Source of the DNA: an uncultured Victivallales bacterium
GTDB taxonomy: Bacteria > Verrucomicrobiota > Kiritimatiellia > UBA8416 > CAYOBW01
Length of the DNA: 64,000 nt
Reading direction: 5' to 3'
Assembly: GCA_964550025.1 (NCBI GenBank)
Contig: CAZJYI010000021.1
Span: 1-64,000, forward strand
Position 1 is the stretch's first letter, and each line of letters begins with the position of its first letter. Shown here piece by piece: positions 4,076-17,962 of the stretch. The notes beneath the pieces were generated by a model that saw only the letters and a list, made by a program, of their open reading frames with translations, ran no database searches and was not told the origin of the DNA. The position numbers and the translations under genes were made by a program.

Positions 4076-4217
4076 CGATCTACGCTGATGTGGTCCACGG
4101 CAGCCCGCCGGGACGTCCCGGTCAGGCATGCTGTTGCCGGAGAACTTGCCAAGTTTCGCGGCGGAATACAAGCATGGAGTGCGGGGTGGAAATGGCGGTC
4201 GGCGGCCCCTTCGCGCA

Positions 4218-4262
4218 TAGGTCCCATGGGTCCCATGGGTCCCATACGTCCCATACATCCCG
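4218..4262. repeat. Tandem 9-bp repeat (GGTCCCATG x3, then GGTCCCATA, CGTCCCATA) upstream of the c-di-GMP regulator
   Basis: Read directly: ggtcccatgggtcccatgggtcccatacgtcccatacatcc. A two-unit relative, ggtcccatccgtcccatc, lies at about 24726-24745. Confidence 0.6.
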
Positions 4263-4294
4263 GAAGCGCCACCCGCCACCCGCCACGCCCCTCC

Positions 4295-5098
4295 TCACCG
4301 AAACAGGATGTCGCAGACGTTGCGGACGTACTTTTCGTCGCTCAGGCCTTCGGTTGCTTCGGTCGTAAAGGCGACTTTGCGCTCGAGGTGGCGGCGGATG
4401 CAGGCGAAGAGTTGCAGTCGTGCGTCCTCATCGAGGTCGGCGCGGCGCATGAGCGACTCGAGCGCGATGCCGGCCTCGCGCGGCAGGATGCGCTGGTGCA
4501 ACCGGGCCGCGATGTGCGGGTAGTGGCGAAAAGAGTTGTACTTGTCCGGCAAAAGCTGGTCGAGGTCCGGTTCCGGGATGCGCGGGTGGTGGACCACGAT
4601 CGTGTTGGCAGCGATGTCGCCCAGTCGCTGGCCGCGCGAGCCGAAGAGCGAAAACAGGCCCCCTACCAGGTAGAAGGCGGGCAACTGGTCGACGAACCGC
4701 AGGATGTTGCGGATGGCGACCTGGCTGAAATGCAGGCGCAGCCCCTGCTCGTCCATGACCTGCAGGCGCAGGAGCTTCTTTCCGAGCGTGCGCCCCTGCC
4801 AGAGCCACTCGAACGCCATGTAGTAGCCGATGCCGATCACAAAGGCCGCCACCATGCCGATGGCCGTTCCAAAGTCCGGGATCGCCGCGCGAACGGGTGA
4901 CAGTATGGTGTTGACGATGGACACCAGTATGCTGATGCAGACCATGTCGATGGCCACGGCAAGGAAACGCGTGACCGGATTGGCTACGAGCAAGGGAAAG
5001 AGAATGCCTTCGGGCGTCCGCACCATGAGGACCTTCCGGTGCCTCTTGACGTCCGCGCGTGAGCCGGCCGTCTGGCCTGTGGCGGTGGTTCCCGGCAC
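4295..5098 (-). CDS. RDD family membrane protein
   Basis: 267 aa. TM helices and the GQRLGDIAANTIVV RDD-type motif. Start overlaps the stop of the upstream gene by 1 nt. Confidence 0.8.
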   Translation of the reverse strand: MPGTTATGQTAGSRADVKRHRKVLMVRTPEGILFPLLVANPVTRFLAVAIDMVCISILVSIVNTILSPVRAAIPDFGTAIGMVAAFVIGIGYYMAFEWLWQGRTLGKKLLRLQVMDEQGLRLHFSQVAIRNILRFVDQLPAFYLVGGLFSLFGSRGQRLGDIAANTIVVHHPRIPEPDLDQLLPDKYNSFRHYPHIAARLHQRILPREAGIALESLMRRADLDEDARLQLFACIRRHLERKVAFTTEATEGLSDEKYVRNVCDILFR

Positions 5099-6150
5099 TA
5101 CGATGTGACCTCCTTCGCTGCGGATCGCGCCCTCTCAGAGACGACGCTTCCTTCGCCCTTCGCCGTTCCGCGCCCGGCCAGCGACAGGAAGAAGATGACG
5201 CCCGCGAGCTGGACGGAACCGAACACGATCTTCACGGCGTAGGGGATGACCGGTTCGTGGTATTGCGATAGGAACGACTCGACGATACCGGCCCACACAA
5301 GCAGCAGGGCGATTCCCCCCACGAGCGTGACAAGGTCCGGAACCACTTCGCGCAGTCGTTCGCGCAGCGACAGTCTCCGGCCCCAGCCGATCATGGCCCC
5401 CGCCAGCACGAAGGCGGCCTGCCCTGCCACCAGTATGGCCGGAATCTCGACCGAGCCGTGCGGCAGCAGCCATCCCGCCAGGAATGCCGATTCCCCGGCC
5501 AGCACGTAGTCCGTTGCCACGGCCCCCAGGATGACGCCGTTGTAGAAGAGCATCGCGATTACGCCGATCCCCCAGGTGGCGCCCAGCGCCAGCGTGTACA
5601 GGCAGACCCGCGTGTTGTGCGTCATGTACCATGCCGCGCCGCGCGCCTTGATTCCGCGCAGGGCATCGTCATCCACCTCTTCTTCCTGCGTGACGCGTTC
5701 GGAGGGGGAGCCCATGAGATGCTGAAACGGGACCACAACGGACTTCGACTCCGGGTCCAGGGCGATGATGGCCGCCCCGAAAAGGCAACCAAGGAGCGTA
5801 ACGGTGGCCGAGAGCCGGAACGCTCCGGCGTGCTTGCGAAAAGTGCGCGGGAGTGTGCCCGTCAGCCAGCGCAACGGGCGCAGGCGGTGCGGCTTGCGCC
5901 GTGTCTCGTGAATCTCGCCGTAGGCGCGGGCCACGAGGGACTCCAGGTAGCGGCGCGTATCGCGTTCGGACGCAAATGTGGCCAGCTTTGCCAGGTCGGC
6001 CGAAACGCGTTCGTAGAGGTGGTGGAAACGGCGGACCTCGGCCAGGTTCAGCGTGCGGGTGTGATCGCGTGCCAGCCGCTCGAGAATGGCCTCGAGCTCT
6101 TGCCAGTACGGTCGTTCGGCCTCGATGAAGCGTTCGAGATCGATGATCAT
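5098..6150 (-). CDS. SpoIIM-like (DUF95) polytopic membrane protein
   Basis: Real start is MIIDLERF at residue 229 of the 578-aa track ORF. The N-terminal 228 residues of the track ORF are out-of-context R/G-rich. TAATG overlap with the DUF58 gene stop. Confidence 0.75.
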   Translation of the reverse strand: MIIDLERFIEAERPYWQELEAILERLARDHTRTLNLAEVRRFHHLYERVSADLAKLATFASERDTRRYLESLVARAYGEIHETRRKPHRLRPLRWLTGTLPRTFRKHAGAFRLSATVTLLGCLFGAAIIALDPESKSVVVPFQHLMGSPSERVTQEEEVDDDALRGIKARGAAWYMTHNTRVCLYTLALGATWGIGVIAMLFYNGVILGAVATDYVLAGESAFLAGWLLPHGSVEIPAILVAGQAAFVLAGAMIGWGRRLSLRERLREVVPDLVTLVGGIALLLVWAGIVESFLSQYHEPVIPYAVKIVFGSVQLAGVIFFLSLAGRGTAKGEGSVVSERARSAAKEVTS

Positions 6151-7535
6151 TACAGCACCTGCCTTGCCTTGACGCTCATGTATTGCGTGACGAGCTCCGT
6201 GCTGAGCCGGTCGTCCTCGACCATGCTCAGACCGACGCCCACGTGGTGGAGCGACTTCTCGACCTCGCGCACCTTCTGCCAGACCATGTGCCCTCCCAGG
6301 CTGCCGTACAGATCGTCCACGTGTGTGGCCTTCGCCGCGGCAAACACGGGACCAATGCCCGGCTGGGCGATGGTCGACACCAGCACGACGTGCTGGCGGC
6401 AGATCAACCGCACGTTGTCCAGGAAACTCTCCGCGATCTGCGGGTCGGTCAGGTCCGTGAGAACCAGCAGCAACGCGCGCCGTCGCAAGCGGAGCCGGAT
6501 GAACGAAAAGAGCTCGCCGAAGTCGGGCGTGGCCGTTTCGGCCGGCAGCATGTAGATCGCGTCGCGGCAGGCGTCGTAGTGCGCCTTGCCGCCCGAGGCG
6601 CGGATGAAGCGCGTCACGCGCTCGCTGAACGTCACGAGACCGAAGAGATCGCCCTGTTGCTCGGCCACCAGGCCCAGGACCAGCGCGGATCGGAGGAAGT
6701 GCTCCAGGGCCGGTTCGCCCCCGTTCTCCCGTCCGCTGAGGCGGGAGTGGTCCACGAGCACGTAGATCTCCTGGGTCCGTTCGACCTGGTACAGTTTGGT
6801 GACGGGTCTTCCCCGCTTGGCCGTTGCCTTCCAATGGATGTCGTCATAGCTGTCGCCGGGGATGTAATCCCGGAGCTTCTCGAAGTCGCGTCCCTGTCCG
6901 AGCATCCGCTGTGTGTGCAGACCGAAATCCCCGCGGTTCAGGAAGATGGCAGCGAGACGATTTCGCTCGCACAGCAGGTTGGGATATACGCGGATCTCAG
7001 CACGCACCGGCGTGGAGCCCCGTGCCAGCCAGAGTCCGAACGGCGAAATGACCTGGTGGTAGCAACGGTCGATGAAGAAGCGGCCGCGGGCTGCCGCCAC
7101 GCAAGCCCAGTCGATACTGGACTTGGCCGTGTCTGCCGGGTGGCGGCAGGTCATCGTCTCGTGCTCGGATGCGATTTCCCGCGGCAGTGGGAGGCCGATA
7201 ACCACGTCTTCGGCCCGGTCGGCCCGGTGCTCGATGAACACCGGAATGACGCCGGGCCTGTCCTTCGACAGGCGCACGACCTCGGGGATCGTTACACGCA
7301 GACCCCGTGCCGAACCGCGTGAGAGCAACGCGTCCGCGACCGCTACCAGACCCAGCGCGGCAAAAACAAGCAGCGAGACCCCGCTCGCGGCCGGCACCAT
7401 GGGACCGAGCGCGGCAAACGGCAGCACCACGATCAGCCAGATCAACAACCTGTTACTTGGTACTAGCATGGGCATTGGACCAGCGACTAGCGACTCGCGA
7501 CCAGCGGTTTCGCTCTTCTGCTCTCCTCTCTCCAA
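6150..7535 (-). CDS. DUF58 (vWA-like) protein
   Basis: YIPGDSYDDIHWKATAKRGRPVTKLYQ is the hallmark DUF58 motif. Follows MoxR after a 16-nt gap. Confidence 0.85.
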   Translation of the reverse strand: MERGEQKSETAGRESLVAGPMPMLVPSNRLLIWLIVVLPFAALGPMVPAASGVSLLVFAALGLVAVADALLSRGSARGLRVTIPEVVRLSKDRPGVIPVFIEHRADRAEDVVIGLPLPREIASEHETMTCRHPADTAKSSIDWACVAAARGRFFIDRCYHQVISPFGLWLARGSTPVRAEIRVYPNLLCERNRLAAIFLNRGDFGLHTQRMLGQGRDFEKLRDYIPGDSYDDIHWKATAKRGRPVTKLYQVERTQEIYVLVDHSRLSGRENGGEPALEHFLRSALVLGLVAEQQGDLFGLVTFSERVTRFIRASGGKAHYDACRDAIYMLPAETATPDFGELFSFIRLRLRRRALLLVLTDLTDPQIAESFLDNVRLICRQHVVLVSTIAQPGIGPVFAAAKATHVDDLYGSLGGHMVWQKVREVEKSLHHVGVGLSMVEDDRLSTELVTQYMSVKARQVL

Positions 7536-7551
7536 TTCGCAATTTGCGATT

Positions 7552-8511
7552 CTACCTCGGTACCGCCACCGCCTCCAGGATCTCGCCGATGACTTCCTCT
7601 ACGGTCAGTCCTTCGATCTCGAATTCGGGCCGCAGGATGAGGCGGTGCACGAGGACGGGGACGGCCATGTCCTTGATGTCGTCGGGCGTCACGAAGTCGC
7701 GACCGCTGACGGCGGCGTAGGCGCGGCTCGCGATCAGCAGCCCCTGCGTGGCGCGCGGGCCGGCGCCGACCAGGATGCTGCCGTGTTCGCGTGACTGGCG
7801 AACGATGTCGACAATGTAGCCGAGAAGCTCATCGCGCACCGTGACGCCCTGCAGCTCGCCGCGCAGTTCGGACAACTCCCCCGGGCTGATGACCGCCTCG
7901 ACGGCGTCGCCGGCCAGAACGGCCTCGGGGGCGTCCTCGCCCAGCATGCGCTGCGCAAGGGTCAATTCGTCGTCCCGCTCAGGACACAGCATCGGCACTT
8001 TGAGCATGAAGCGGTCCTTCTGGGCTTCGGGCAGGGGATAGGTGCCTTCGTATTCGATGGGGTTCTGAGTCGCGAAAACCGTGAAGTTCGCCGACAGCGC
8101 GTGGGTCTCGCGGTCGATGGTGACGCGCCGCTCCTGCATGGCCTGGAGAAGCGCGGACTGCGTCTTGGCTGGCGCGCGGTTGATCTCGTCGGCCAGCAGG
8201 AACGTCGTGAAGACCGGGCCCTTGATCAGCGTGAAGACGTTCTCCTTCAGGTTGAAGACGTTGGTTCCGGTAATATCGGCGGGCATGAGGTCGGGGGTGA
8301 ACTGGATGCGTTGCGTGTCGCACCCCAGTACCTTGCCCAGCGTACGGACGAGCAGGGTCTTGGCCACGCCGGGCACGCCTTCGATCAGGGCGTGAGTGCC
8401 CGTGAAAATCGTAATGAGCGCCATGTCGACAACGCGCTCCTGGCCTATGATGACCTTCGACACTTCGGCGCGAGCCCTTGTCAGCACTTCGGCAAGCCGT
8501 TCGGTGTTCAT
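7552..8511 (-). CDS. moxR: MoxR-family AAA+ ATPase
   Basis: 319 aa. IIGQERVVDMALITIFTGTHALIEGVPGVAKT Walker A, and a sensor region. ATGA overlap with the upstream gene. Confidence 0.9.
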   Translation of the reverse strand: MNTERLAEVLTRARAEVSKVIIGQERVVDMALITIFTGTHALIEGVPGVAKTLLVRTLGKVLGCDTQRIQFTPDLMPADITGTNVFNLKENVFTLIKGPVFTTFLLADEINRAPAKTQSALLQAMQERRVTIDRETHALSANFTVFATQNPIEYEGTYPLPEAQKDRFMLKVPMLCPERDDELTLAQRMLGEDAPEAVLAGDAVEAVISPGELSELRGELQGVTVRDELLGYIVDIVRQSREHGSILVGAGPRATQGLLIASRAYAAVSGRDFVTPDDIKDMAVPVLVHRLILRPEFEIEGLTVEEVIGEILEAVAVPR

Positions 8512-9905
8512 TGTGCTTTCTCCTCTCCGTCGTCTTGTGGTCTATTCTCAACATTAAGTGTCTGGCGTTCGTGCAGGAAAGCGGCGATGCGGTTGTAGGC
8601 GCGGGCGATGTTGCGCTCTTTGCGTGGTTTTGCGCTCTCGGCGTCGGCGATTTTGCGCATGGCGGCGAGCTTGCGCGCGGTGTCGGCGGCGGTGTGTGGC
8701 GCGGAGCGTTTCCACTCGTCGATACAGGCGTCGAGAACGTGGCGCCTGGCGATGTTCCTCCGCAGCAGGTTGACGAGTCCGGAGACGGAGTCCTTGCCGG
8801 GCGAGAACTCCACGGCCGGGCCGCGGGCGGCGGACTCGTACGGGGGGACGAGACTGGAAGCGCTTTGCCATACGAACAACAGGGCGAGCAACACCAGGCC
8901 CGCCCCGAACCAGTGCAGCCTGTAGCGGCGTGCCAGCATGACCACGCCTTGCGGTGTCTGAATGCCGTGGTGGTGCTCGTCGAACACGACGGTAGTGCTG
9001 TCCCCGATCAGCCACAACAGGAGTGGCGTCCGACGCCTGCGTCTGAGGGCCTCGTTGGAAACAAAGTAGCCCGGCGCCGAGAGAACCAGCGCCCCGTCCC
9101 CCCAGGGGCGCTCAATGACGACCGGGTTGCCGTCGCGTTCGTACAATACGCGCCAGTCCTCCGTGAGGTCGCAGAAACAGCGTGTTGTGCGGCAGGTGAC
9201 GGTGTTCGGGAGCCCCTCTTCGACGGCCCAGACCGTTGCCGTTGCGGTGGGCGCCTCCTCGATCGTGACGAAAGCGATCCCGACATTGAGCCAGTCTTTC
9301 AGCCGGACGGTCTTTGCCCGGTCGCTGCGCGGGGTTGGCACCGGCACCACCCCCTGTTCGTCCCAGCGGACCTCCAGATCCTCCTCTTCCTCCTCGTCTT
9401 TACCCTCGTCTTTACCTTCGTCTTCACCTTCGTCTGCAGCGTCCGTCTCCTCCTCCTCGGAATCGTCCGCATCCCCATCCTCGTCTTCCTCTCCTCCGAG
9501 CAGGAAGTAGTCCTCTTCGGACTCACGGGCGGTTGGCTGGAGTGTGACGACCACGCGTCCCCCCCGACGCATGAACGCGCTGAGGCGGTTGGCGGATTCC
9601 CGCGAGACGCTGGCGTATTCCGACGTGGGCAGGTAGTCGCCGAGGAAGAGCAGCGCCGTGTTGGAAGGAAGCGCTTCGAGGTCGACTCGCGTGAGAGGTT
9701 CGAAGCAGCGCGAAACGGTTGTGCCGACGCAGGACGCCAGTCCGTCGTACAAGACGCGCGTTCCGAGCGGATCGGACCGCAATGAGGAGTAAGGGGGGTA
9801 GATGTCACCCGCCTCGAAACGCAGGACGAAAAGCTGCGAAACGCCCAGGACGAGCACGGCCCCGAGGAGCAGGGCGGAGATGATGCCTGTCCGGTTTCCC
9901 CGCAT
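8508..9905 (-). CDS. Membrane-anchored protein with a D/E-rich insert, DUF4350-like position in MoxR/DUF58 clusters
   Basis: Start MRGNRTGIISALLLGAVLVLGV (residue 173 of the track ORF). Acidic tract EEDEDGDADDSEEEETDAADEGEDEGKDEGKDEEEEED. 1-nt overlap on both sides. Confidence 0.6.
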   Translation of the reverse strand: MRGNRTGIISALLLGAVLVLGVSQLFVLRFEAGDIYPPYSSLRSDPLGTRVLYDGLASCVGTTVSRCFEPLTRVDLEALPSNTALLFLGDYLPTSEYASVSRESANRLSAFMRRGGRVVVTLQPTARESEEDYFLLGGEEDEDGDADDSEEEETDAADEGEDEGKDEGKDEEEEEDLEVRWDEQGVVPVPTPRSDRAKTVRLKDWLNVGIAFVTIEEAPTATATVWAVEEGLPNTVTCRTTRCFCDLTEDWRVLYERDGNPVVIERPWGDGALVLSAPGYFVSNEALRRRRRTPLLLWLIGDSTTVVFDEHHHGIQTPQGVVMLARRYRLHWFGAGLVLLALLFVWQSASSLVPPYESAARGPAVEFSPGKDSVSGLVNLLRRNIARRHVLDACIDEWKRSAPHTAADTARKLAAMRKIADAESAKPRKERNIARAYNRIAAFLHERQTLNVENRPQDDGEEKAQ

Positions 9906-11074
9906 CACGCTTCCTCCTGCGATGCCGTCGGAGGGGGCGGTTCCGGCGGCGGGGTGGTTACGGTCTGCAGGATCACGTCCTGGTTGGCGCGGAAGCCGGA
10001 GACCGTGTACCTGTCGGCCGCGTGTGCGCCGTACCAAACGCTTTCCAGGACGCCGACGTTGGTTCGGAACGCCTCCAGCAGGGACGCGCGGTCGTGAGCC
10101 CGGCGGTCGAGCTCGCGGCCGTAGTCGCGGTTGGACTTGTGCTTTGCGATTCGGACCAGACGGCACTGCCCGAGATGTGCCAGTGCCGCCAGGAACATGG
10201 CGCGAAGGGCCAGACGCCATTCTTCCCTTTCCATGAAGTCCATGGCCATTTCCATCCAGCGGTCGGCGGGAAGCTGGTCGGCCACCACGTCCTCGTCCGT
10301 GATGTCGGGCAGTGACGCGACCGGAACGGCTTTCACGGCGGGCCCCCGGCGGCGCGTCTTCCAGACGCGATACAGCACGAAGCCCAGGAGGATGCCGGCC
10401 AGAACGGCCGCCAGGACCCACATCGACCGCACCGAGACCAGACCACGCGAACGGTCGACGTCATGCTCCCTCCTGTACATCAGCCTGCGCATCCATCGCA
10501 GCAACTTCGTGAGCTGCTTGGCCACCCACCTGCCGAATTGGCGCAGTTTCTCCATGACGCGCTCGAGAAAACCGGCCAGGATTCCCGGTTCGGCGACCTC
10601 CTCTTCGCGCTCCCTGGGGGCGCGCCACGCGTAGCGCGGCTTGACGAGCGTCGTGTCGATGGCCCTGTCCAACTCCTGTGCCGTGATGCCGGCGCCTGCC
10701 GGCGCGGTTTCAGCTTCGGCCCGGCACGGGGTGGAGTGCAGGGGCAGCAGGGACAGGAGCAGGAGATACAGCGCTGCGGCAGAGACTCGTACTCCGGGCT
10801 GCGTCCGACCGTGTCCGAGAGGGGGGGGGCGACGCGATCGCGAAGTAGGACGGTGCTCCTGCGCCGTCCGGGGAGGCAGCACGGAGGCGGGTAGTGCGAG
10901 AGAATGGCACGATGTGCGGCTCCTCTCTCTCTTCGTCCTCCACGTTCTGCCACAAGGACGGCGCGGGAGCACCGTCCTACGGGGGAAGACTGCGCCCCGT
11001 GCCCTGTTCGGCCCCGGGTGTTCCGAAGACCGTGACGCATTCCCTCGCACCACTCTCACTGCTCCTCCTCCCAC
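9905..11074 (-). CDS. DUF4129-like membrane protein
   Basis: C-terminal KSNRDYGRELDRRAHDRASLLEAFRTNVGVLESVWYG matches the DUF4129 pattern (SRTxRE ... RYG). Has an internal TM. Start is uncertain: the first ~90 residues are R/P-rich and overlap the upstream gene by 19 nt. A GTG at VRVSAAALYLLLL is plausible. Confidence 0.6.
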   Translation of the reverse strand: MGGGAVRVVRGNASRSSEHPGPNRARGAVFPRRTVLPRRPCGRTWRTKRERSRTSCHSLALPASVLPPRTAQEHRPTSRSRRPPPLGHGRTQPGVRVSAAALYLLLLSLLPLHSTPCRAEAETAPAGAGITAQELDRAIDTTLVKPRYAWRAPREREEEVAEPGILAGFLERVMEKLRQFGRWVAKQLTKLLRWMRRLMYRREHDVDRSRGLVSVRSMWVLAAVLAGILLGFVLYRVWKTRRRGPAVKAVPVASLPDITDEDVVADQLPADRWMEMAMDFMEREEWRLALRAMFLAALAHLGQCRLVRIAKHKSNRDYGRELDRRAHDRASLLEAFRTNVGVLESVWYGAHAADRYTVSGFRANQDVILQTVTTPPPEPPPPTASQEEA

Positions 11075-12033
11075 TCGTCCCGCACTGCGTCCCCCATCGC
11101 CCCCTCGGGGTCGAGCAGGCGCAGCTCGACCATCAGGTCTTCACCCGTTCTGCGGGATTCGCCGTAAAAGCAGCGCAGGGTGTAAGCGGCCTTGGCGAAA
11201 GGGTCCAGGCAGAGGTACGACAGGCCGACGACCGTGACAACAAACGTGCTGTTCAGTACGGCATGCATGCCGCCGAGCGTAAATGTCGTTTCAATTCCCA
11301 GGAACGTCTTGAGCAGAGACGGGACGAGAACGATGACCGCCGCGATGTTGGCGGCCACCACGCAACCGAACGGCGACACGGGGAAGACAACCAACGCCAG
11401 CAACATGAACGCCAGCAGGAACCAGACGAGTCCGTGGAGCCCCTGCAGATCGGGATTGGCGCGGAGAGCGAACCAGACCGCGGTAAAGGAAATGAAGATC
11501 CCCATGCTCAGTATCCACGGACTGAGCAACCACATCACGATCACGTTCTGCCGCGGCCAGAGCGTGGCCTGGCGATAGGAGCGCTTGACGGCGGCGCCGA
11601 GGTCGAGGTCCGTCCCGTCGGCAATGACGGAAAACGCCTGGAAGAAACCGTTGGTGATGACCACGGCCAGGGGGATCAACACGATCCCGAGGGGCTGTAC
11701 CATGGTCTGCATCAGGGCGAGCCGCAGGATGCGCCGGGCGCGCCACGGCGGCTGCCCGTGGCCGCGGATGTGTGCGGAGAGGGCGCTGGTGAAGCCGGCC
11801 TGCCAGCACTTCATCCATACGAACAGCGCCGCCAGCGCCAGCGATGCGCCCAGGCAGCGCTCCGCGGCAAACGCACTGCGGCTCATCTCGGACCAGAAAT
11901 ACAGGAACCCGAGGACAAACGGTACGCTTCCCGCGTAGTATGCGGCCAGGACCGTGACGGGGGCGGTTGCCACGACGTGGACAGCCTCCCCTACCAGGTC
12001 GAAGCCGCCGATGGCCCTGCCGGCTTTGCGCAT
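11056..12033 (-). CDS. Polytopic membrane protein, function unknown
   Basis: Start MRKAGRAIGG overlaps (TAATG) the stop of the small zinc-ribbon gene. Five or more predicted TM helices. Confidence 0.55.
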   Translation of the reverse strand: MRKAGRAIGGFDLVGEAVHVVATAPVTVLAAYYAGSVPFVLGFLYFWSEMSRSAFAAERCLGASLALAALFVWMKCWQAGFTSALSAHIRGHGQPPWRARRILRLALMQTMVQPLGIVLIPLAVVITNGFFQAFSVIADGTDLDLGAAVKRSYRQATLWPRQNVIVMWLLSPWILSMGIFISFTAVWFALRANPDLQGLHGLVWFLLAFMLLALVVFPVSPFGCVVAANIAAVIVLVPSLLKTFLGIETTFTLGGMHAVLNSTFVVTVVGLSYLCLDPFAKAAYTLRCFYGESRRTGEDLMVELRLLDPEGAMGDAVRDEWEEEQ

Positions 12034-12347
12034 TACGGCAGCTCCTTCCACATGCGGCCCTCGTGAAACGCGCTCGGAATGCGCACGAGTACCTGGCCGA
12101 TCGCGTACAGAACCCACCACAGGAAAACGAATCCGCCGGCAGCCTGCAGGTACGGTTTCAAGGTCCCCAGGCGTACGCGGCGCTTGCTGCGCTTGCCCGC
12201 GATGCCAGACAGGCAGGCTGCGCAGACGACGCGATCATCGTGCTCCGTGACGCATTCCCGGCAGAAGAACCGGCCGCATTCCGGGCACCGGGCGGCCGCC
12301 TCACGGGTGCGATGGTTGAAGCAGCGTTGTTTCGCGATCGCGTTCAT
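12033..12347 (-). CDS. Small zinc-ribbon (B-box-like, two CxxC pairs) protein with a C-terminal TM helix
   Basis: 104 aa, MNAIAKQRCFNHRTREAAARCPECGRFFCRECVTEHDDRVVCAACL, then FVFLWWVLYAIGQVLV. It is hidden as the C-terminal end of the 425-aa track ORF 12033..13310, whose remainder is out of frame. ATGA overlap with the upstream gene. Confidence 0.6.
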   Translation of the reverse strand: MNAIAKQRCFNHRTREAAARCPECGRFFCRECVTEHDDRVVCAACLSGIAGKRSKRRVRLGTLKPYLQAAGGFVFLWWVLYAIGQVLVRIPSAFHEGRMWKELP

Positions 12348-13501
12348 TGCCGCAGGACCTTCTTGTCGGCGGGTTCGTCGTTTTCGGGCTGCTCGTTGCC
12401 GGGCCGGTTGTCCTCCGGCTGCCCGTCGTCGGCGGGCGCGGCCGGCGGTTGCGGCGGCGCGTCGTTCGGCATGCGGTAGCGCCGCATGAGCAGAAGCCCC
12501 CACAGCGCCAGGATGCCGGCCGTGAACATGCAGGCCACCAGCCAGCCCAGCAGCACGGGGGTCGTGCCGAGCGGGACAATGGCAACGTAGTGCTGGACGC
12601 CCCAGTAGTCGGGGGTTCCTCCCTGCTGGATAGTGTAGGCCATGTTGTAGACCGTCCAGAAGGCAAGGGACGCTCCCAGGTATGCTACCGTTCCCCAGGC
12701 CACGTTCCGTATCCCGCGCGGGAGGTCCGTGCCCTGCTGCTTGATGAGCGCCGTAACGGCCGAGACGATGAGTCCCACGGCGATGAAGGCGCCGGCCGAG
12801 TGCACGGCCACGGTGCGCACCAGCATGTCGGCCATGGTGTGCAGCATGTCGATCAGGAGGAAAACGAAGAGGATGTCGTGAGCCCGGCTGCGGTAGGGCT
12901 TCAGCGGCCGGTCGCGGCCCGGCGGCTTCGGCGGGATCGGTTGGGCGGAGACCTTTTGCGCGATGGCTTGTGCTGCCGACGATTCGGTATCGAGCCATAG
13001 GCGTTCTGCGTCCTCCGGTGCCAGTGCGCCCTGCAGGGCTTCGATCTCCGCGCGCAGCTCGCGGGTGACGCGGAGGGCTTTGCGCATGCGGCTGAGGCAG
13101 TAGAGCCGTTCGGTCTGGACCGCCGTGCGGATCTCGCAGACGCATGTTGGGCCCGCGACCAGGTTGACGAGCAGTGGCACGCTGAACAGGAACATGAAGA
13201 AGGCGTCGACGACCATGGCGGCAACGGACCATCCCAGGAATGCTCCCAGCACGGTCAGCAGCAGGAACAGAGCCGTCAATCCGCCGAAGATCCCGTTCAC
13301 CACCTCCCACGCGGACGTCCTTCGTATGACGATGGCCTGGATGTCCTTGAGGTAGAAGCGCTTATACTCCTCGGAAAACCCGGCGCCGGAAACGGACAGG
13401 ACATGGTCCGGCCCCATCCAGAGGCTCGTGCGGGCGATGGACGCCGTGGAGGGGCCCGCCAGCCTGCGGTATTGAACGCGCGCCGTACTACTATCCGTCA
13501 T
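12344..13501 (-). CDS. Polytopic membrane protein, function unknown; first gene after repeat element A
   Basis: 385 aa, multiple TM helices, C-terminal Pro/Glu-rich tail. N-terminus MTDSSTA lies inside the conserved element. Confidence 0.6.
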   Translation of the reverse strand: MTDSSTARVQYRRLAGPSTASIARTSLWMGPDHVLSVSGAGFSEEYKRFYLKDIQAIVIRRTSAWEVVNGIFGGLTALFLLLTVLGAFLGWSVAAMVVDAFFMFLFSVPLLVNLVAGPTCVCEIRTAVQTERLYCLSRMRKALRVTRELRAEIEALQGALAPEDAERLWLDTESSAAQAIAQKVSAQPIPPKPPGRDRPLKPYRSRAHDILFVFLLIDMLHTMADMLVRTVAVHSAGAFIAVGLIVSAVTALIKQQGTDLPRGIRNVAWGTVAYLGASLAFWTVYNMAYTIQQGGTPDYWGVQHYVAIVPLGTTPVLLGWLVACMFTAGILALWGLLLMRRYRMPNDAPPQPPAAPADDGQPEDNRPGNEQPENDEPADKKVLRQ

Positions 13502-13598
13502 CTTCTTGCTTTCCTGGCGGGTCCACCGGATGGGAGCGGCTATCCCGTTGATCCTGTCCGAATTCCCGTTTGGCTTCCGCTATGCTGTGTCGTGGTCA
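13482..13598 (-). repeat. Conserved intergenic element, copy A (fills the gap from the upstream stop to the downstream start and the first ~7 codons)
   Basis: Aligned by eye to copies B and C. Core GGACAGGATCAACGGGATAGCCGCTCCCATCCGGTGGACCC ... AAGAAGATGACGGATAGTAGTACGG (minus orientation). Confidence 0.6.
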
Positions 13599-14228
13599 TC
13601 CGCTACCCAGATCCTTGACGAGATTGACGATGAAGACCCCGATGCCGGTGAGCTCGCCCAGGGCGAGGATGACGGCGAGGACATACCGCCAGCGCGAGCG
13701 GGGCAGTATGCTCAGCGGCCTTTTCCAGTAGCGGATTGCAATGAAAACGGCGGCCGGTGCGGTCACCGGGGTCGCGAACCAGAAGACGCAGAGGAGCGGA
13801 ACCACCGCCAGCGCGAGGGCCAGGTTGTCGTACTGGAAATAGCGCTTCGTCAGGTGCCGCAGCTTGTTCTTTTCGACCCCGGCCTCGATGCAGCGCGGGC
13901 AGATGTGCTCTTCGCCGAGCTGGACGTCACAGAGTGCGCAAAGGAAGCGACCGCAGCGTTCGCAGGCGATGACGGCCTTCTTCTCGGCGTGATAGAAACA
14001 GGATGCTTCGTCGTCTACGACGAGCTGTTCCCCGGTCGGCGCGGCCCGGGGGGGTGCGTAGAGTGCGGGAAACACGAAGGCATACGTCGGCACGTCGCAT
14101 GCCGGGCAGGCCTTTGCCCCTTCGCTGCTGAAGGTGTTCCAGGGGAGCGGCGTGCCGCACTTCGAACACGCAAGCATGTGATGGTCTGTCTCCGCCATCA
14201 TTCCGTCTTGATCACCCGCGTGTCGCAA
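13596..14228 (-). CDS. Double zinc-ribbon membrane protein
   Basis: CSKCGTPLP...CPACD and CERCGRFLCALCD...CPRC motifs, then two TM helices. Paralogous to the small zinc-ribbon gene. Non-ATG (TTG) start in the track; MMAETDHH is an alternative start. Confidence 0.6.
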   Translation of the reverse strand: MRHAGDQDGMMAETDHHMLACSKCGTPLPWNTFSSEGAKACPACDVPTYAFVFPALYAPPRAAPTGEQLVVDDEASCFYHAEKKAVIACERCGRFLCALCDVQLGEEHICPRCIEAGVEKNKLRHLTKRYFQYDNLALALAVVPLLCVFWFATPVTAPAAVFIAIRYWKRPLSILPRSRWRYVLAVILALGELTGIGVFIVNLVKDLGSG

Positions 14229-14956
14229 ATGTGGTCGTGAAGGGCGCGTTTCTCATCGTCAAACGCGGCGATGAGATAGCCGACATTCAGCAACATCCCG
14301 CTCAGCATGTCACCGAAGTAGCGCCCGACGGCGCGGCCGTACGTGATCGGGTCGCCGTTGGCGCGGACGACCTTCAGCTTGCAGGCCATTTTGCCCGGGG
14401 TGGCGCCGAACTTGCCGAGAAAGAAGACGGTGTACGCGAGCTGCATGCCCATGCCGATGCCCTGTATGAGGAGCTGTATGCCGATCGCCGCGAACGGACT
14501 GGTGTTGTCGTCCGCCAGGCCGGAGAAGGGTATGATGAAGATCAGCAGGAGCACCCACATGGCGGCCATCATGATGAGACCGTCGATGATCTTGGCGGCG
14601 AAGCGGATCCAGAAGCCGCCGTAGATCATGACGCCCGGGACGGCGGCGCCCTCCTGCAAACGCTGGAAAAATGCCGGTTTGCACGCGGCGCAGACGGAAG
14701 CGCCCTGGTACGTCAGGAGATCCTGTTTCGGAAAAAGCCTCCCGCACTCCGTACAGAGGCCTGTGCGGGGTGCGTCGCTTGCCGTACCGGGCGCGACGTC
14801 GACCTGCTGCAGGCTGCCGTAGGGCAGCCAGTCCTCCATGCCCCCGTGCCACACGAGGGTGTCTGCGCCCACTTTCCCCGCGGCGACGAGTTGCGCGAGT
14901 TCCTCATCCGAGACGGGGCCGTGCTGCTGTTGGCCCGTTGCGTAGTACCATTCCAT
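14198..14956 (-). CDS. DUF4339(GYF-like) / zinc-ribbon / RDD domain membrane protein
   Basis: MEWYYATGQQQHGPVSDEEL...TLVWHGGMEDWLPY (DUF4339). CTECGRLF...CAACK zinc ribbon. C-terminal RDD region (GKMACKLKVVRANGDPITYGRAVGRYFGDMLS). Confidence 0.75.
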   Translation of the reverse strand: MEWYYATGQQQHGPVSDEELAQLVAAGKVGADTLVWHGGMEDWLPYGSLQQVDVAPGTASDAPRTGLCTECGRLFPKQDLLTYQGASVCAACKPAFFQRLQEGAAVPGVMIYGGFWIRFAAKIIDGLIMMAAMWVLLLIFIIPFSGLADDNTSPFAAIGIQLLIQGIGMGMQLAYTVFFLGKFGATPGKMACKLKVVRANGDPITYGRAVGRYFGDMLSGMLLNVGYLIAAFDDEKRALHDHICDTRVIKTE

Positions 14957-14965
14957 CTCTTGCTG

Positions 14966-15925
14966 CTACCGACTCCCCTCTGCCCGCAGGTCCTCGTAGA
15001 ACTCTGCGAAACTGGTCGACATGTACGGCATGAGCCAGATGAAACCAATCCCGAGCGTGAAGATGCACAGGAACGACCAGCCGATGAAACGGCAGCAAAG
15101 GCAGAAGTACTTCCACTTCTTGCCGCGCATCATCTCGTGGCTCGTGCGGATGGCATCCATGGCGGCGATGTTCGGGTTGTCGGCGATGATGTAGAATGTC
15201 TGACTGAGGGCGTAGGCCGCGATAATGCCGGGGATAATCAACAGCAGTATTCCGGCAAAGACGATCAGTGACAGAATGATATAGGCCAGCAGCGCCGTGC
15301 CGAAGATCTTGAAACCGTCGAACATCATCTGAAATTCGGGCTGCTGCCCCCGCACCAGACGCAGAAAGAAGATGGCCAGGCCGACCATGAAGGGGCCGGT
15401 GATGATCAGGGGCGCCAGATTGCCCAGGAACGGAACGCTGCTGGCCGCCACGGCGATAATGTTGTAGACAATGGTGACGGCGATGGCCAGTCCCCAGTAG
15501 CCCGTCAGGTGCGAACGGGCGGCCGCCATGAGGTCCGCGTTGGGCGTGTTGCCCGTGTAGGCCGGCGTCGCTCCCTCCTGCAGGCGCTGGAAGAACTGCT
15601 GCTTGCAGTTGGCGCAGATCTGCTTGCCCTGGTACTCCACCATGTCGTCGGGCCGGTTGGGACGATTGCACTGCGAGCAGTACTGCATTCCCTGGGCCGA
15701 GGACGGGGATTCGGCGGCCCGCTTGGCCGCCGGTTGGGGTTCCGCCGCTGCCTGCGCGGGCGCTTGCGCTGCCGGCGCGATCTGCCCGTACGGCGTCCAG
15801 TCCGCCATGCCGGCATGCCACACCAACGTATCTGTTTTCACCGTTCCCGCGCCGGCAAGACGTGCGAGCTCTTCGTCCGACACGGGCCCCTGCTGCTGTT
15901 GACCTGATGCGTAGTACCAGTCCAT
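14966..15925 (-). CDS. DUF4339(GYF-like) / zinc-ribbon / DUF975-like polytopic membrane protein
   Basis: MDWYYASGQQQQGPVSDEEL...TLVWHAGMADWTPY. CSQCNRP...CANCK. C-terminal GYWGLAIAVTIVYNII ... MMRGKKWKYFCLCCRFIGWSF matches the DUF975 pattern. N-terminal paralog of the preceding gene. Confidence 0.7.
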   Translation of the reverse strand: MDWYYASGQQQQGPVSDEELARLAGAGTVKTDTLVWHAGMADWTPYGQIAPAAQAPAQAAAEPQPAAKRAAESPSSAQGMQYCSQCNRPNRPDDMVEYQGKQICANCKQQFFQRLQEGATPAYTGNTPNADLMAAARSHLTGYWGLAIAVTIVYNIIAVAASSVPFLGNLAPLIITGPFMVGLAIFFLRLVRGQQPEFQMMFDGFKIFGTALLAYIILSLIVFAGILLLIIPGIIAAYALSQTFYIIADNPNIAAMDAIRTSHEMMRGKKWKYFCLCCRFIGWSFLCIFTLGIGFIWLMPYMSTSFAEFYEDLRAEGSR

Positions 15926-16003
15926 TTCACTTGCCCCGTTATCTGTTTAGGTATCGTTTCGGACGCTCACGCTACCACATCGGAGGGTCAAGAGGCCAGT
16001 GAT

Positions 16004-17962
16004 TTGTGGGGTGTTGTCTTTTCTCCGTGCGTCCATGGAGGACGTGCTGTATTGTCCAAGAGCGGTTTTGCGCCAGTCGGCGGCAGCGCCGCAGCGAGGA
16101 GATGGCCGTTGCACAAGGAAGCATATTTCGTGGTGGGTTTCTTCGCTGCCCTGGCCCTGTTGACCTGGCTGTGGACCGTCTGGCTGCGCCGCGTCGTCCA
16201 GCGCAGAACCGAGGAACTGCAGAAGCACCAGAACCACCTCGACCAGCTCGTGGCGGAGCGGACCCGGGCGTACGAACGAGCGAACGCGGAATTGGAGCGC
16301 GAGATCGAAGAGCGCCGGCGGGCGCAGCGTGAGCTGGCCGCCCACCAGGATCGCCTCGAGGCCATGGTCGACGAACGCACGGCCGACCTGATCAGGGCCA
16401 ACCGGGAGCTGCGCAAGGAGTGCGAGCAAAGACGGCGCGTCGAGGAATCCCACCAGCACCTGTCCGCCGGGATCGAACAGGCGGTCGAAACGGTCCTCAT
16501 CATGGATGCGCAGGGACGTATTCAGTATGTCAATCCGGCCTTCGAGTCGACTTCGGGATACCGGCGGGACGAAGTCCTCGGGAAGAACCTCGATATTCTC
16601 CTGGATACCGACAACGCCGATGACGAGCTTCGCGAGATGTGGGAAACGGTTCGCGCGGGGGACGTGTGGAGCGGCGAGAGGACGCACCGCCGCAAGGACG
16701 GCAAGGCCTACCGCGAGGAAGTGACCCTGTGCCCCGTGAGGAATCCCCGCGGAGAAATCATCAGCTTCGTTTCCGTGCAGCACGACATCACGGAGAAGCT
16801 GCTGCTGCGGGACCAGCTCCGGCAGGCGCAGAAGATGGAGGCCGTGGGCAACCTGGCCGGCGGCGTGGCCCACGACTTCAACAACCTGTTGATGGTCATC
16901 GTCAACAGCGCGCGGTTCATCAAGGAGAGCGTCAAAGGCCGGCCGCAGGTGGAGGAAGACGTCGACGACATCATCGAGGCTTCGCGCAGCGCCGTCGATC
17001 TGACGCGCCAGCTCCTGGCCTTCTCGCGCAGGCAGCCGCTGTTGCCCAAAGTCTGCGACCTCAACAAGATCCTGGCTGACACCGAGACGATGATGAGGCG
17101 CACGATCGGCGAAGACATCGAGTTGATCATCCACCGCTCCGGGACGCCCGTTCCGGTCGAGGTCGACCCTGGGCAAATCAAGCAGGTGATTCTGAACCTG
17201 GCCGTCAACGCGCGCGCGGCCATGCCCGACGGCGGCGAGCTGCGGCTCGAGTTGAGCGAAGTCGGACTCACGGCCGAGGACCGCTGGCGGTTCGTCGAGG
17301 CGCCCGAGTTTTCCGCCGGCACGTACGCCCTGTTGACCGTCAGCGACAGTGGCGTCGGCATGGACGCGGAGACGCTCTCACACGTCTTTGAGCCCTTCTT
17401 CACAACCAAGGCCGCCGGTAAAGGAACGGGTCTGGGGCTTTCCACCGTCTACGGCATCGTGCGCCAGCACACCGGGCTCATCGCTGTTCGCAGCGAACCG
17501 GGCATCGGGACGGTTTTCGAGATCTGCCTGCCCGTCAGCAGCGCGCCAGAGGTGGCCGAGGCCGGTGCGGCTCCCGAGGGCGGCGTCGTGCGCGGCGACG
17601 AGACCATCCTGTTCGTCGAGGACGAGTTGGTTGTGCGACGGGTGGGCTGCCGCATGCTTCGCCGGCTCGGGTACCGCGTGCTGGAAGCCTCGAGCGGTGA
17701 GGAGGCCATGGCACTTGAGGCAACGTTCGACGAACCGATCCACCTGTTGCTGACCGACGTCATTATGCCCGGCATCGACGGCGGGACGCTGGCGGAACGC
17801 ATGCGCGGAAAACGCCCCGGTATCAAAGTGCTGTTCGCGTCCGGCTATTCGGGAACCTACCTCGACCGCCACGGCAAGGTCGGACAGGACGATCCCCTTC
17901 TCGCGAAACCGTTCCTCATCTCCGAAGTCTCGCAGATGCTGCGGCGATTGCTGGATGGGTGA
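16004..17962 (+). CDS. Hybrid sensor histidine kinase / response regulator (TM / coiled coil / PAS / HisKA / HATPase_c / REC)
   Basis: HDFNNLL H-box, HATPase N/G boxes, C-terminal [12 protein letters not shown]...[13 protein letters not shown] receiver. The reading frame has no ATG before the TM helix, so the start is TTG or GTG. Confidence 0.85.

Follow-up and report, generated by a model that had tools for sequence, protein, structure and literature searches.

Modules that pair a MoxR-family AAA+ ATPase with a DUF58 protein are among the commonest uncharacterised ATPase systems of bacteria. A core-type copy is present in Mycobacterium tuberculosis (Rv3689-Rv3695), and this moxR2 locus, like its M. 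chelonae equivalent (MAB_0386c-0392c), encodes in an order shared with the locus described here a membrane protein, DUF4350, MoxR, DUF58, a SpoIIM-family protein and RDD. The M. chelonae counterparts of Rv3689-Rv3695 are co-regulated (PMC8191103), and in M. tuberculosis both the SpoIIM-like and the RDD protein are co-purified with Rv0954, a protein of the divisome (PMC8093794), a hint of a link to the envelope. In archaea, neighbourhoods of arCOG01314 (DUF4350), MoxR and vWA genes are predicted to specify a secretion or membrane-remodelling complex, and SpoIIM has been noted beside vWA and COG0714 genes in bacteria (Makarova, Galperin and Koonin 2015, PMC5898192). Here we describe an extended system of this type, encoded by twelve genes at 4295-15925 in a 64,000-nucleotide stretch of DNA from an uncultured Victivallales bacterium (contig CAZJYI010000021.1, positions 1 to 64,000), referred to below as the window.

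Eleven of the twelve genes make up a set that is standard across phyla in this clade and that keeps, in bacteria of at least seven phyla, the order GYF-RDD, double zinc finger, 385-residue protein, 104-residue protein, 325-residue protein, DUF4129, DUF4350, MoxR, DUF58, SpoIIM and RDD. Membrane modules of MoxR/vWA type are already known; the extended 11-gene form is without a description in the searchable literature, full-text searches with combinations of DUF4350, DUF4129, DUF58, RDD and SpoIIM having found none. The window copy is ordinary and shows no local expansion, and the interest lies in the system rather than in this locus. An earlier note on this DNA had described the cluster as 'expanded', with further genes 'grafted on' as an 'unusually rich accessory set'; that description does not survive the comparison with other genomes.

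Conservation and gene content

One genome per species was scanned for relatives of the 325-residue protein (gene 6 in the list below), yielding at least 396 genomes, and the best 80 of these at least 396 loci were annotated with the twelve window proteins by tblastn. The identical order of eleven genes on one strand was found in 31 of the 37 fully flanked loci and, because it recurs in this way in several phyla, it reflects more than chance. Among the loci with enough flank, no component falls below 93% presence. On the upstream side the counts are 47/50 for GYF, 55/58 for the double zinc finger, 61/63 for the 385-residue protein and 74/76 for the 104-residue protein; in the core they are 76/76 for DUF4129, 65/65 for DUF4350, 59/62 for MoxR and 54/58 for DUF58; and at the 3' end 50/53 for SpoIIM and 45/47 for RDD. 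The earlier note had joined the upstream genes to the MoxR module, and the comparison of neighbourhoods bears this out: where gene 6 is present, they are co-conserved with that module.

The carrier records are all metagenome-assembled genomes (MAGs), assigned to Verrucomicrobiota (including Lentisphaerae, Kiritimatiellae, Pedosphaera and Chthoniobacterales), Hydrogenedentota, Desulfobacterota, Nitrospirota, Acidobacteriota, Myxococcota and Moduliflexus. Five homolog contexts, from Lentisphaerae, Limisphaerales (Verrucomicrobiota) and Thermodesulfovibrionales (Nitrospirota), have the same neighbours within the set and wholly different flanking genes. The nearest named genome is a Lentisphaerae MAG, with about 50% identity for gene 6. 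Reduced forms also occur: the loci that we number L013 and L021 have the 104-residue gene and the core only, and L007 is without the GYF and double-finger genes. The same operon appears, at 36-40% identity, in records labelled as a Promethearchaeota archaeon (L071), Bifidobacteriaceae (L065) and Klebsiella (L073), the likeliest explanation being that the contigs were binned wrongly and that the labels do not give the true hosts. The window copy stands out in three respects: genes 6 and 7 occur as a split pair, a GYF-DUF975 paralog (gene 1) is added, and a gene for cyclic di-GMP (c-di-GMP) turnover is linked.

The region has a G+C content of 64%, so that long spurious open reading frames (ORFs) are abundant, and genes were called from G+C content at third codon positions (GC3), start-codon context and independent public calls on identical metagenome contigs. 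GC3 is 0.78-0.86, a coding signature, in all twelve head-to-tail genes, and the public calls match all of them; the twelve minus-strand genes of the earlier note are thus upheld by both. This includes the 104-residue protein, which the note had seen hidden in a larger ORF; it sits at the end of a spurious ORF of 425 residues and is called by the public callers. The genes are listed here with their predicted domains and helices.

14966-15925, minus strand: gene 1, 319 residues, cytoplasmic GYF_2 head, CxxC..CxxC zinc ribbon and DUF975 polytopic tail
14198-14956, minus strand: gene 2, 252 residues, GYF_2 head, zinc ribbon and RDD; the start of the canonical 11-gene set
13596-14201, minus strand: gene 3, 201 residues, zinc ribbon, FPAL linker, B-box-like finger and two to three transmembrane helices
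12344-13501, minus strand: gene 4, 385 residues, split PH-like domain with transmembrane hairpin, cytoplasmic helical linker and four-helix transmembrane bundle
12033-12347, minus strand: gene 5, 104 residues, B-box-like two-zinc finger, one transmembrane helix and short outside tail
11056-12033, minus strand: gene 6, 325 residues, eight-helix polytopic membrane protein
9905 to about 10882, minus strand: gene 7, about 325 residues (start uncertain), DUF4129 protein
8508-9905, minus strand: gene 8, 465 residues, DUF4350 protein
7552-8511, minus strand: gene 9, 319 residues, MoxR-family AAA+ ATPase
6150 to about 7475, minus strand: gene 10, about 441 residues, DUF58 protein
5098-6150, minus strand: gene 11, 350 residues, SpoIIM-family membrane protein
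4295-5098, minus strand: gene 12, 267 residues, RDD domain and conserved C-terminal cytoplasmic domain of about 100 residues
1541 to about 4075, minus strand: downstream gene, about 844 residues, receiver-GAF-GGDEF-receiver-HD-GYP protein of c-di-GMP turnover (Pfam)

Neighbouring genes are closely packed. Start and stop codons certainly overlap at five junctions (ATGA at 12347, TAATG at 12033, TGATG at 9905, ATGA at 8511 and TAATG at 6150) and probably at a sixth (TAGTG at 5098), where the stop of gene 11 meets a GTG start of gene 12 preceded by the Shine-Dalgarno sequence AAGGAGG. An overlap at 11059, between genes 6 and 7, is doubtful and a spacer of about 173 nucleotides likelier: no frame retains the GC3 signal over 10840-11050, the putative N-terminal extension of gene 7 is not conserved in L009, which is 64% identical over the rest of the protein, and the public callers place the start at 10882 or 10672. 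Six of the seven overlaps that had been claimed for the eight core junctions therefore hold, one of them as probable. The interval between MoxR and DUF58, put at 16 nucleotides in the earlier note, has to be revised. Ortholog alignments give no support to a TTG start at 7535, which would leave such a gap; they begin at residue 2-3 of the form starting at ATG 7475, so that a gap of 76-82 nucleotides (ATG 7475 or 7469) is probable. The MoxR-to-DUF58 spacer contains four copies of the 7-nucleotide repeat GACCAGC (7478-7506). Upstream, 9 nucleotides separate genes 1 and 2, genes 2 and 3 overlap in an ATGA at 14201, and a 94-nucleotide spacer lies between genes 3 and 4. In the Nitrospirota locus L012 there are eight consecutive start/stop overlaps. 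Consensus scans for promoter-like and terminator-like sites gave no excess over shuffled sequence, and no Rfam family was matched over 3800-16400. Judged by this spacing, the twelve co-directional and largely overlapping genes would form one operon; the earlier note had concluded this for nine of them.

The c-di-GMP gene lies about 220 nucleotides downstream of gene 12. L009 retains it at the same position with 83% identity and it is not at that position in L007 or L011-L013; it is linked in close relatives only and stands outside the conserved set. It is followed by an AAA_31-domain gene (556-1362) and, on longer identical contigs, by Poly_export and Wzz polysaccharide-export genes, a linkage that is kept in L009 and not in distant loci. 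The spacer between gene 12 and the c-di-GMP gene holds, at 4216-4286, a tandem 9-nucleotide unit in 4.4 copies (CATAGGTCC) and a 7-nucleotide unit in 2.9 copies (CGCCACC). The upstream boundary is set by a divergent hybrid histidine kinase gene with PAS, HisKA, HATPase and receiver domains (16004-17962, plus strand). Kinases are found near the operon in eight other loci, including L007 and L026, with an identity of just 26-42%, and a conserved linked regulator is unconvincing.

The proteins and their predicted topology

Hydropathy, a scan for zinc motifs and AlphaFold2 models were combined to predict topology. By these, all of the proteins appear to be anchored in the membrane except MoxR, which would be the sole soluble protein of the set. 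The two GYF heads, the zinc ribbons, the two B-box-like fingers, the PH-like domain, DUF4129, the vWA-like domain of DUF58 and MoxR itself are predicted to be cytoplasmic; facing the periplasm there would be only DUF4350 and the central segment of the DUF4129 protein.

MoxR (gene 9) matches AAA_3 with 206.5 bits (cut-off 27, E 1.4e-61) and AAA_lid_2 with 72.8 bits (E 1.9e-20) in Pfam, and among solved structures 2r44_A comes nearest to it (E 4.5e-77). Walker A (GVPGVAKT), Walker B (LLADEINR) and sensor (ATQNP) motifs are all present and identity between phyla is 66-83%; with its catalytic motifs intact and so highly conserved, the ATPase looks active. Directly downstream, gene 10 encodes a DUF58 protein (64.8 bits, cut-off 23.4, E 8.2e-18) in which two N-terminal transmembrane helices precede a cytoplasmic vWA-like domain. 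Its beta-1 motif reads D-x-S-R-L-S, with the arginine in 54/54 orthologs and the leucine in 51/54. No match to PF00092 or PF13519 was found for this protein in Pfam, and a sequence search found no solved relative.

The DUF4350 protein (gene 8; 42.5 bits, cut-off 30.4, E 1.1e-10) has an N-terminal anchor, a large periplasmic DUF4350 domain of a fold described as GldG-like (PMC5898192), a transmembrane helix and a cytoplasmic tail. Within its gene, a 12/24-nucleotide repeat at 9380-9435 encodes a lineage-specific acidic low-complexity insert (EEDEDGDADDSEEEETDAADEGEDEGKDEGKDEEEEEDLE) in a region that is unconserved among 58 orthologs. Gene 11 is a SpoIIM-family protein (108 bits, cut-off 26.9, E 6e-31) with an N-terminal cytoplasmic helical domain, DUF8413 (PF28475), identified from precomputed matches on identical public contigs. 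RDD domains, which are said to contain a cytoplasm-facing intramembrane binding site (PMC12419801), are exactly two in number, in gene 12 (69.3 bits, E 5.5e-19) and gene 2 (81.1 bits, E 1.2e-22); a search of the remaining proteins relaxed to E<=10 gave no third, and the earlier count of three has to be lowered.

Gene 6 matches no Pfam family; WSDMSRS and WMKxWQ are among its invariant residues. A profile search over 1.84 billion cluster representatives gathered 1538 members of its family, 1008 of them with E<=1e-30, in three forms: fused proteins of about 555 residues, fused proteins of about 590-640 residues with a two-helix insert, and split proteins of about 320-335 residues. Gene 7 scores 17.6-17.9 bits against Pfam DUF4129, under the cut-off of 24.8; its assignment follows from orthology, since it aligns at 30-42% identity with fused orthologs bearing PF13559, over their C-terminal halves. 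Its layout comprises a signal-anchor helix, an outside segment of about 100 residues, a second transmembrane helix and a cytoplasmic DUF4129 domain. Because the homologs of gene 6 are mostly proteins of 540-640 residues with DUF4129 as their C-terminal half, genes 6 and 7 are, judged by homology, the two halves of a normally single protein that has been split in the window lineage. What had been taken for an extra polytopic protein is the ordinary N-terminal half of DUF4129 proteins of about 550-640 residues. In L007, a Lentisphaerae MAG, DUF4129 and DUF4350 are instead fused in a protein of 696 residues (10999-13089) and the membrane protein, of 333 residues, is separate. Gene 6 may have a choline-transporter-like (CTL/SLC44/PNS1) fold; a relationship to the DUF975 tail of gene 1 was rejected (hhalign probability 0.5%). 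The 173-nucleotide spacer at the split (10883-11055) folds at -86.9 kcal/mol with a z of -2.3. A mobile element or RNA was considered for it and set aside: there is no second copy in the window, the spacer is not conserved in the 71%-identical L009, and its folding is moderate.

Genes 1 and 2 each begin with a GYF_2 (DUF4339) domain, at 63.9 bits against a cut-off of 25.8 (E 1.1e-17 and 1.2e-17). Over the first 119 residues, covering the GYF and zinc-ribbon head, gene 1 is 50% identical to gene 2, after which it continues into DUF975 (121.3 bits, cut-off 34.8, E 7.8e-35). It has an ortholog in L009, and GYF-DUF975 stands in for GYF-RDD in L019, L020 and L022. Gene 1 is an extra paralog, confined to the window lineage and its Victivallales-like relatives. 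In L046, tandem GYF paralogs precede the operon at 4504-8257, four of them full GYF-zinc-ribbon-RDD copies and another two fragments of the GYF head; it is apparently in the GYF gene that the system varies and can expand. In bacteria, GYF domains are binding modules for a proline-rich partner; they typically lie N-terminal to a membrane module, and 44% of them adjoin a zinc ribbon (PMC11135422). A conserved proline-rich ligand was sought within the set and rejected: there was no consistent motif, and the linker of gene 3 is a conserved FPAL and is not proline-rich.

There are five CxxC...CxxC zinc modules in four proteins, by hydropathy and zinc-motif scan, in place of the four zinc ribbons that had been counted, and two of the five are, going by their ligand patterns, B-box-like cross-brace fingers and not simple ribbons. 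They lie in genes 3 and 5, and the two window proteins score 20.5 and 22.2 bits against Pfam zf-B_box, the cut-off being 24.1; for gene 3, whose finger reads C-x2-H...CxxC-x4-CxxC...CxxC, the E-value is 1.6e-4. Some homologs of gene 3 pass PF00643, and one is named 'B-box zinc finger protein' by NCBI; the second finger of gene 3 is paralogous to the finger of gene 5. In gene 5 this predicted zinc finger is matched by zf-B_box at E<=0.01 in 31/32 orthologs. Its ligands, C-x2-H-x8-C-x2-C-x4-C-x2-C-x3-H-x5-C-x2-C, are invariant in the 32, with C9, H12, C21, C24, C29, C32, C42, C45, P91 and H95 among the invariant residues; the spacing resembles that of the B-box cross-brace. After the finger come a basic linker, one transmembrane helix and a tail, LP..FHEGTLW (12036-12080), predicted to lie outside the cytoplasm, whose proline and histidine are invariant in the 32 orthologs from several phyla.

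Gene 4 has no Pfam or NCBIfam family and contains the invariant motifs DH, E-YKRFY and TAVQ. The PH-like fold is defined by a seven-strand beta-sandwich with a C-terminal capping helix, and by sequence and model gene 4 would be a split beta-sandwich of this type with an inserted transmembrane hairpin. For genes 3-6 no Pfam or NCBIfam model reached its curated cut-off, and NCBIfam gave no family at cut-off for any of 10 proteins. Taken together, the Pfam comparisons support the domains proposed in the earlier note for MoxR, DUF58, DUF4350, SpoIIM, the two GYF_2 heads and DUF975; DUF4129 is the one that falls below cut-off and depends on orthology.

Possible function and competing explanations

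On balance, the single operon seems to specify an inner-membrane complex of eleven proteins (twelve here) built around MoxR and DUF58. The fusion of gene 6 to DUF4129 in most genomes and that of DUF4129 to DUF4350 in L007 are signs of physical linkage between the components. In such a complex, by analogy with other MoxR/vWA pairs, a MoxR hexamer would dock on the membrane-tethered DUF58 protein and use ATP to assemble or reshape a membrane platform; this platform would bring together DUF4350 and SpoIIM with the RDD and polytopic/DUF4129 proteins. Recruitment of a partner, or the gating of assembly, might fall to the GYF, zinc-finger and PH-like domains as adaptors in the cytoplasm, as it does to GltJ in Myxococcus gliding complexes, and the output would most likely be the handling of an envelope or membrane component. 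The earlier suggestion of MoxR-driven membrane remodelling is reasonable, and agrees with the prediction made for the DUF4350/MoxR/vWA core (PMC5898192); the quality-control role that the note gave as an alternative is conceivable. A stronger claim is that the 11-gene operon is an unrecognised, widespread inner-membrane machine, a new transport, secretion or membrane-remodelling system in which a MoxR/vWA-like motor is coupled to GYF adaptors, B-box fingers, a PH-like domain inserted in the membrane and a subunit resembling a transporter; we consider this rather improbable as a whole.

Several observations weigh against a single complex of this kind. Spacers of 94, about 173 and about 76 nucleotides interrupt the 12-gene block, whose operon status is read from spacing. 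The loci were picked through gene 6, as the best 80 of at least 396, and the figures for co-conservation are conditional on gene 6. DUF58 is without the canonical metal ion-dependent adhesion site (MIDAS) motif, D-x-S-x-S, and the usual metal-mediated grip of a vWA domain on its client cannot be assumed. Candidate proline-rich ligands for the GYF domains are unconserved: a stretch in gene 4 is present in 16/28 orthologs, and the proline tail of the DUF4129 protein is specific to the window. The function of the extended form is, moreover, inferred throughout.

The operon could instead combine two unrelated modules, the upstream GYF, zinc-finger and membrane set being independent of the MoxR-DUF58-DUF4350-DUF4129-SpoIIM-RDD core. 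The 94-nucleotide spacer between genes 3 and 4, the reduced forms in L013, L021 and L007, and the mycobacteria, which are reported with core-type genes only, are compatible with such a division. It is nevertheless very unlikely given that order and strand are the same in 31/37 loci of several phyla, with each upstream gene in at least 93%, and that start/stop overlaps bridge the boundary (genes 4, 5 and 6 here, every junction in L012). A novel protein secretion system, in which GldG-like DUF4350 and the polytopic proteins form a conduit that MoxR/DUF58 assembles or energises, would suit the outward DUF4350 domain, the many polytopic subunits and the presence of an ATPase, and secretion was predicted for the archaeal DUF4350/MoxR/vWA neighbourhood (PMC5898192). 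In the loci examined, however, neither a candidate substrate nor an outer-membrane, secretin or S-layer component is present, and the soluble domains are nearly all predicted to be cytoplasmic. MoxR ATPases, moreover, are known as remodelling chaperones (RavA/ViaA, CbbQ/CbbO, NorQ/NorD) and not as translocation motors, and we regard secretion as unlikely.

Maturation of a membrane enzyme encoded elsewhere, with MoxR/DUF58 inserting a metal or cofactor and the other proteins acting as scaffolds, is brought to mind by the MoxR/vWA-like pairing itself, which is typical of NorQ/NorD, CoxD/CoxE and CbbQ/CbbO, and by the invariant histidine in the outside motif of the 104-residue protein, which could bind a metal. 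Yet none of the loci has a client enzyme linked to it, and the flanking genes vary freely; known maturases need two or three genes as against the eleven conserved here, and the MIDAS motif of DUF58 is non-canonical, all of which makes a maturation chaperone quite unlikely. To an anti-phage or conflict system of MoxR-vWA type we give next to no credence. Its one foothold is a secondary Pfam match of MoxR to bpMoxR (45.5 bits, E 6e-12), the family of MoxR-vWA-beta-propeller conflict systems, but this lies far below the 206.5 bits for AAA_3. PADLOC returned nothing for any of 10 proteins, and Pfam detected neither a beta-propeller nor an effector or nuclease domain. The genes keep a stable order and lie among housekeeping genes (dnaA, yidC, RNase HII), not in a defence island.

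An inner-membrane complex around MoxR and DUF58 remains the reading that we favour. With an 11-gene form that is fixed, a loose collection of DUFs becomes a defined inventory of parts, to which fusions, overlaps and invariant motifs lend a stoichiometric look. It also offers four families for curation: the polytopic DUF4129 partner, the membrane protein with the split PH-like domain and a pair of membrane proteins with B-box-like fingers. The names of carrier records (Victivallis vadensis, Pedosphaera, Desulfosarcina) suggest genetic targets, all loci seen being metagenome-assembled.

Comparison with known systems

MoxR genes beside a vWA-fold partner are shared with RavA-ViaA, NorQ-NorD, CbbQ-CbbO and CoxD-CoxE. 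Those chaperone pairs carry out ATP-driven remodelling through a vWA adaptor with a canonical MIDAS, and their client enzyme has been identified; the window system, in contrast, has no client, an altered DUF58 motif and nine further membrane proteins. Bat-type operons (Bacteroides aerotolerance; Rhizobium RL3499-RL3502; Borrelia BB0170-BB0176) likewise share MoxR and DUF58, followed by membrane proteins, and their mutants have envelope or stress phenotypes. They carry the canonical vWA membrane proteins BatA and BatB and the TPR protein BatC, and are without DUF4350, DUF4129, SpoIIM and RDD, whereas none of the 12 window proteins has a vWA (PF00092/PF13519) or TPR domain by Pfam, which sets the locus apart from the Bat type. 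The Borrelia context of such an operon is described in PMC5700661.

Two other systems resemble single parts of the operon. GltJ, of the Myxococcus Agl-Glt gliding machinery, is a membrane protein whose cytoplasmic zinc ribbon and GYF domain control the assembly of an envelope complex (PMC11135422). The GYF heads match the GltJ NCBIfam model locally (E 9e-09), at 35 bits against a cut-off of 450; the domain order differs, a periplasmic TonB-C-like part in GltJ takes the place of RDD or DUF975, and neither MglA and AglZ nor gliding genes occur in the locus. In the Bacillus SpoIID/M/P engulfment complex, SpoIIM belongs to the same Pfam family as gene 11 and acts as a scaffold in the membrane, to which it recruits other proteins (PMC5898192). 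Here, by contrast, homologs of SpoIID and SpoIIP are absent, the organisms are non-sporulating, and gene 11 has its extra N-terminal cytoplasmic domain.

The closest likenesses are to whole loci. The archaeal neighbourhood shares a DUF4350 protein with an outside domain and a C-terminal anchor, a COG0714 MoxR, and an Ig-plus-vWA protein of DUF58 type; its further partners are S-layer-like Ig-domain proteins, in place of the polytopic/DUF4129, SpoIIM, RDD, GYF, B-box and PH-like proteins found here. The mycobacterial moxR2 locus has the same core in the same relative order, with Rv3689 and Rv3690 as candidate counterparts of the 325-residue and DUF4129 proteins. It differs in its strand arrangement (Rv3694c) and in that no GYF, B-box or PH-like genes have been reported from it.

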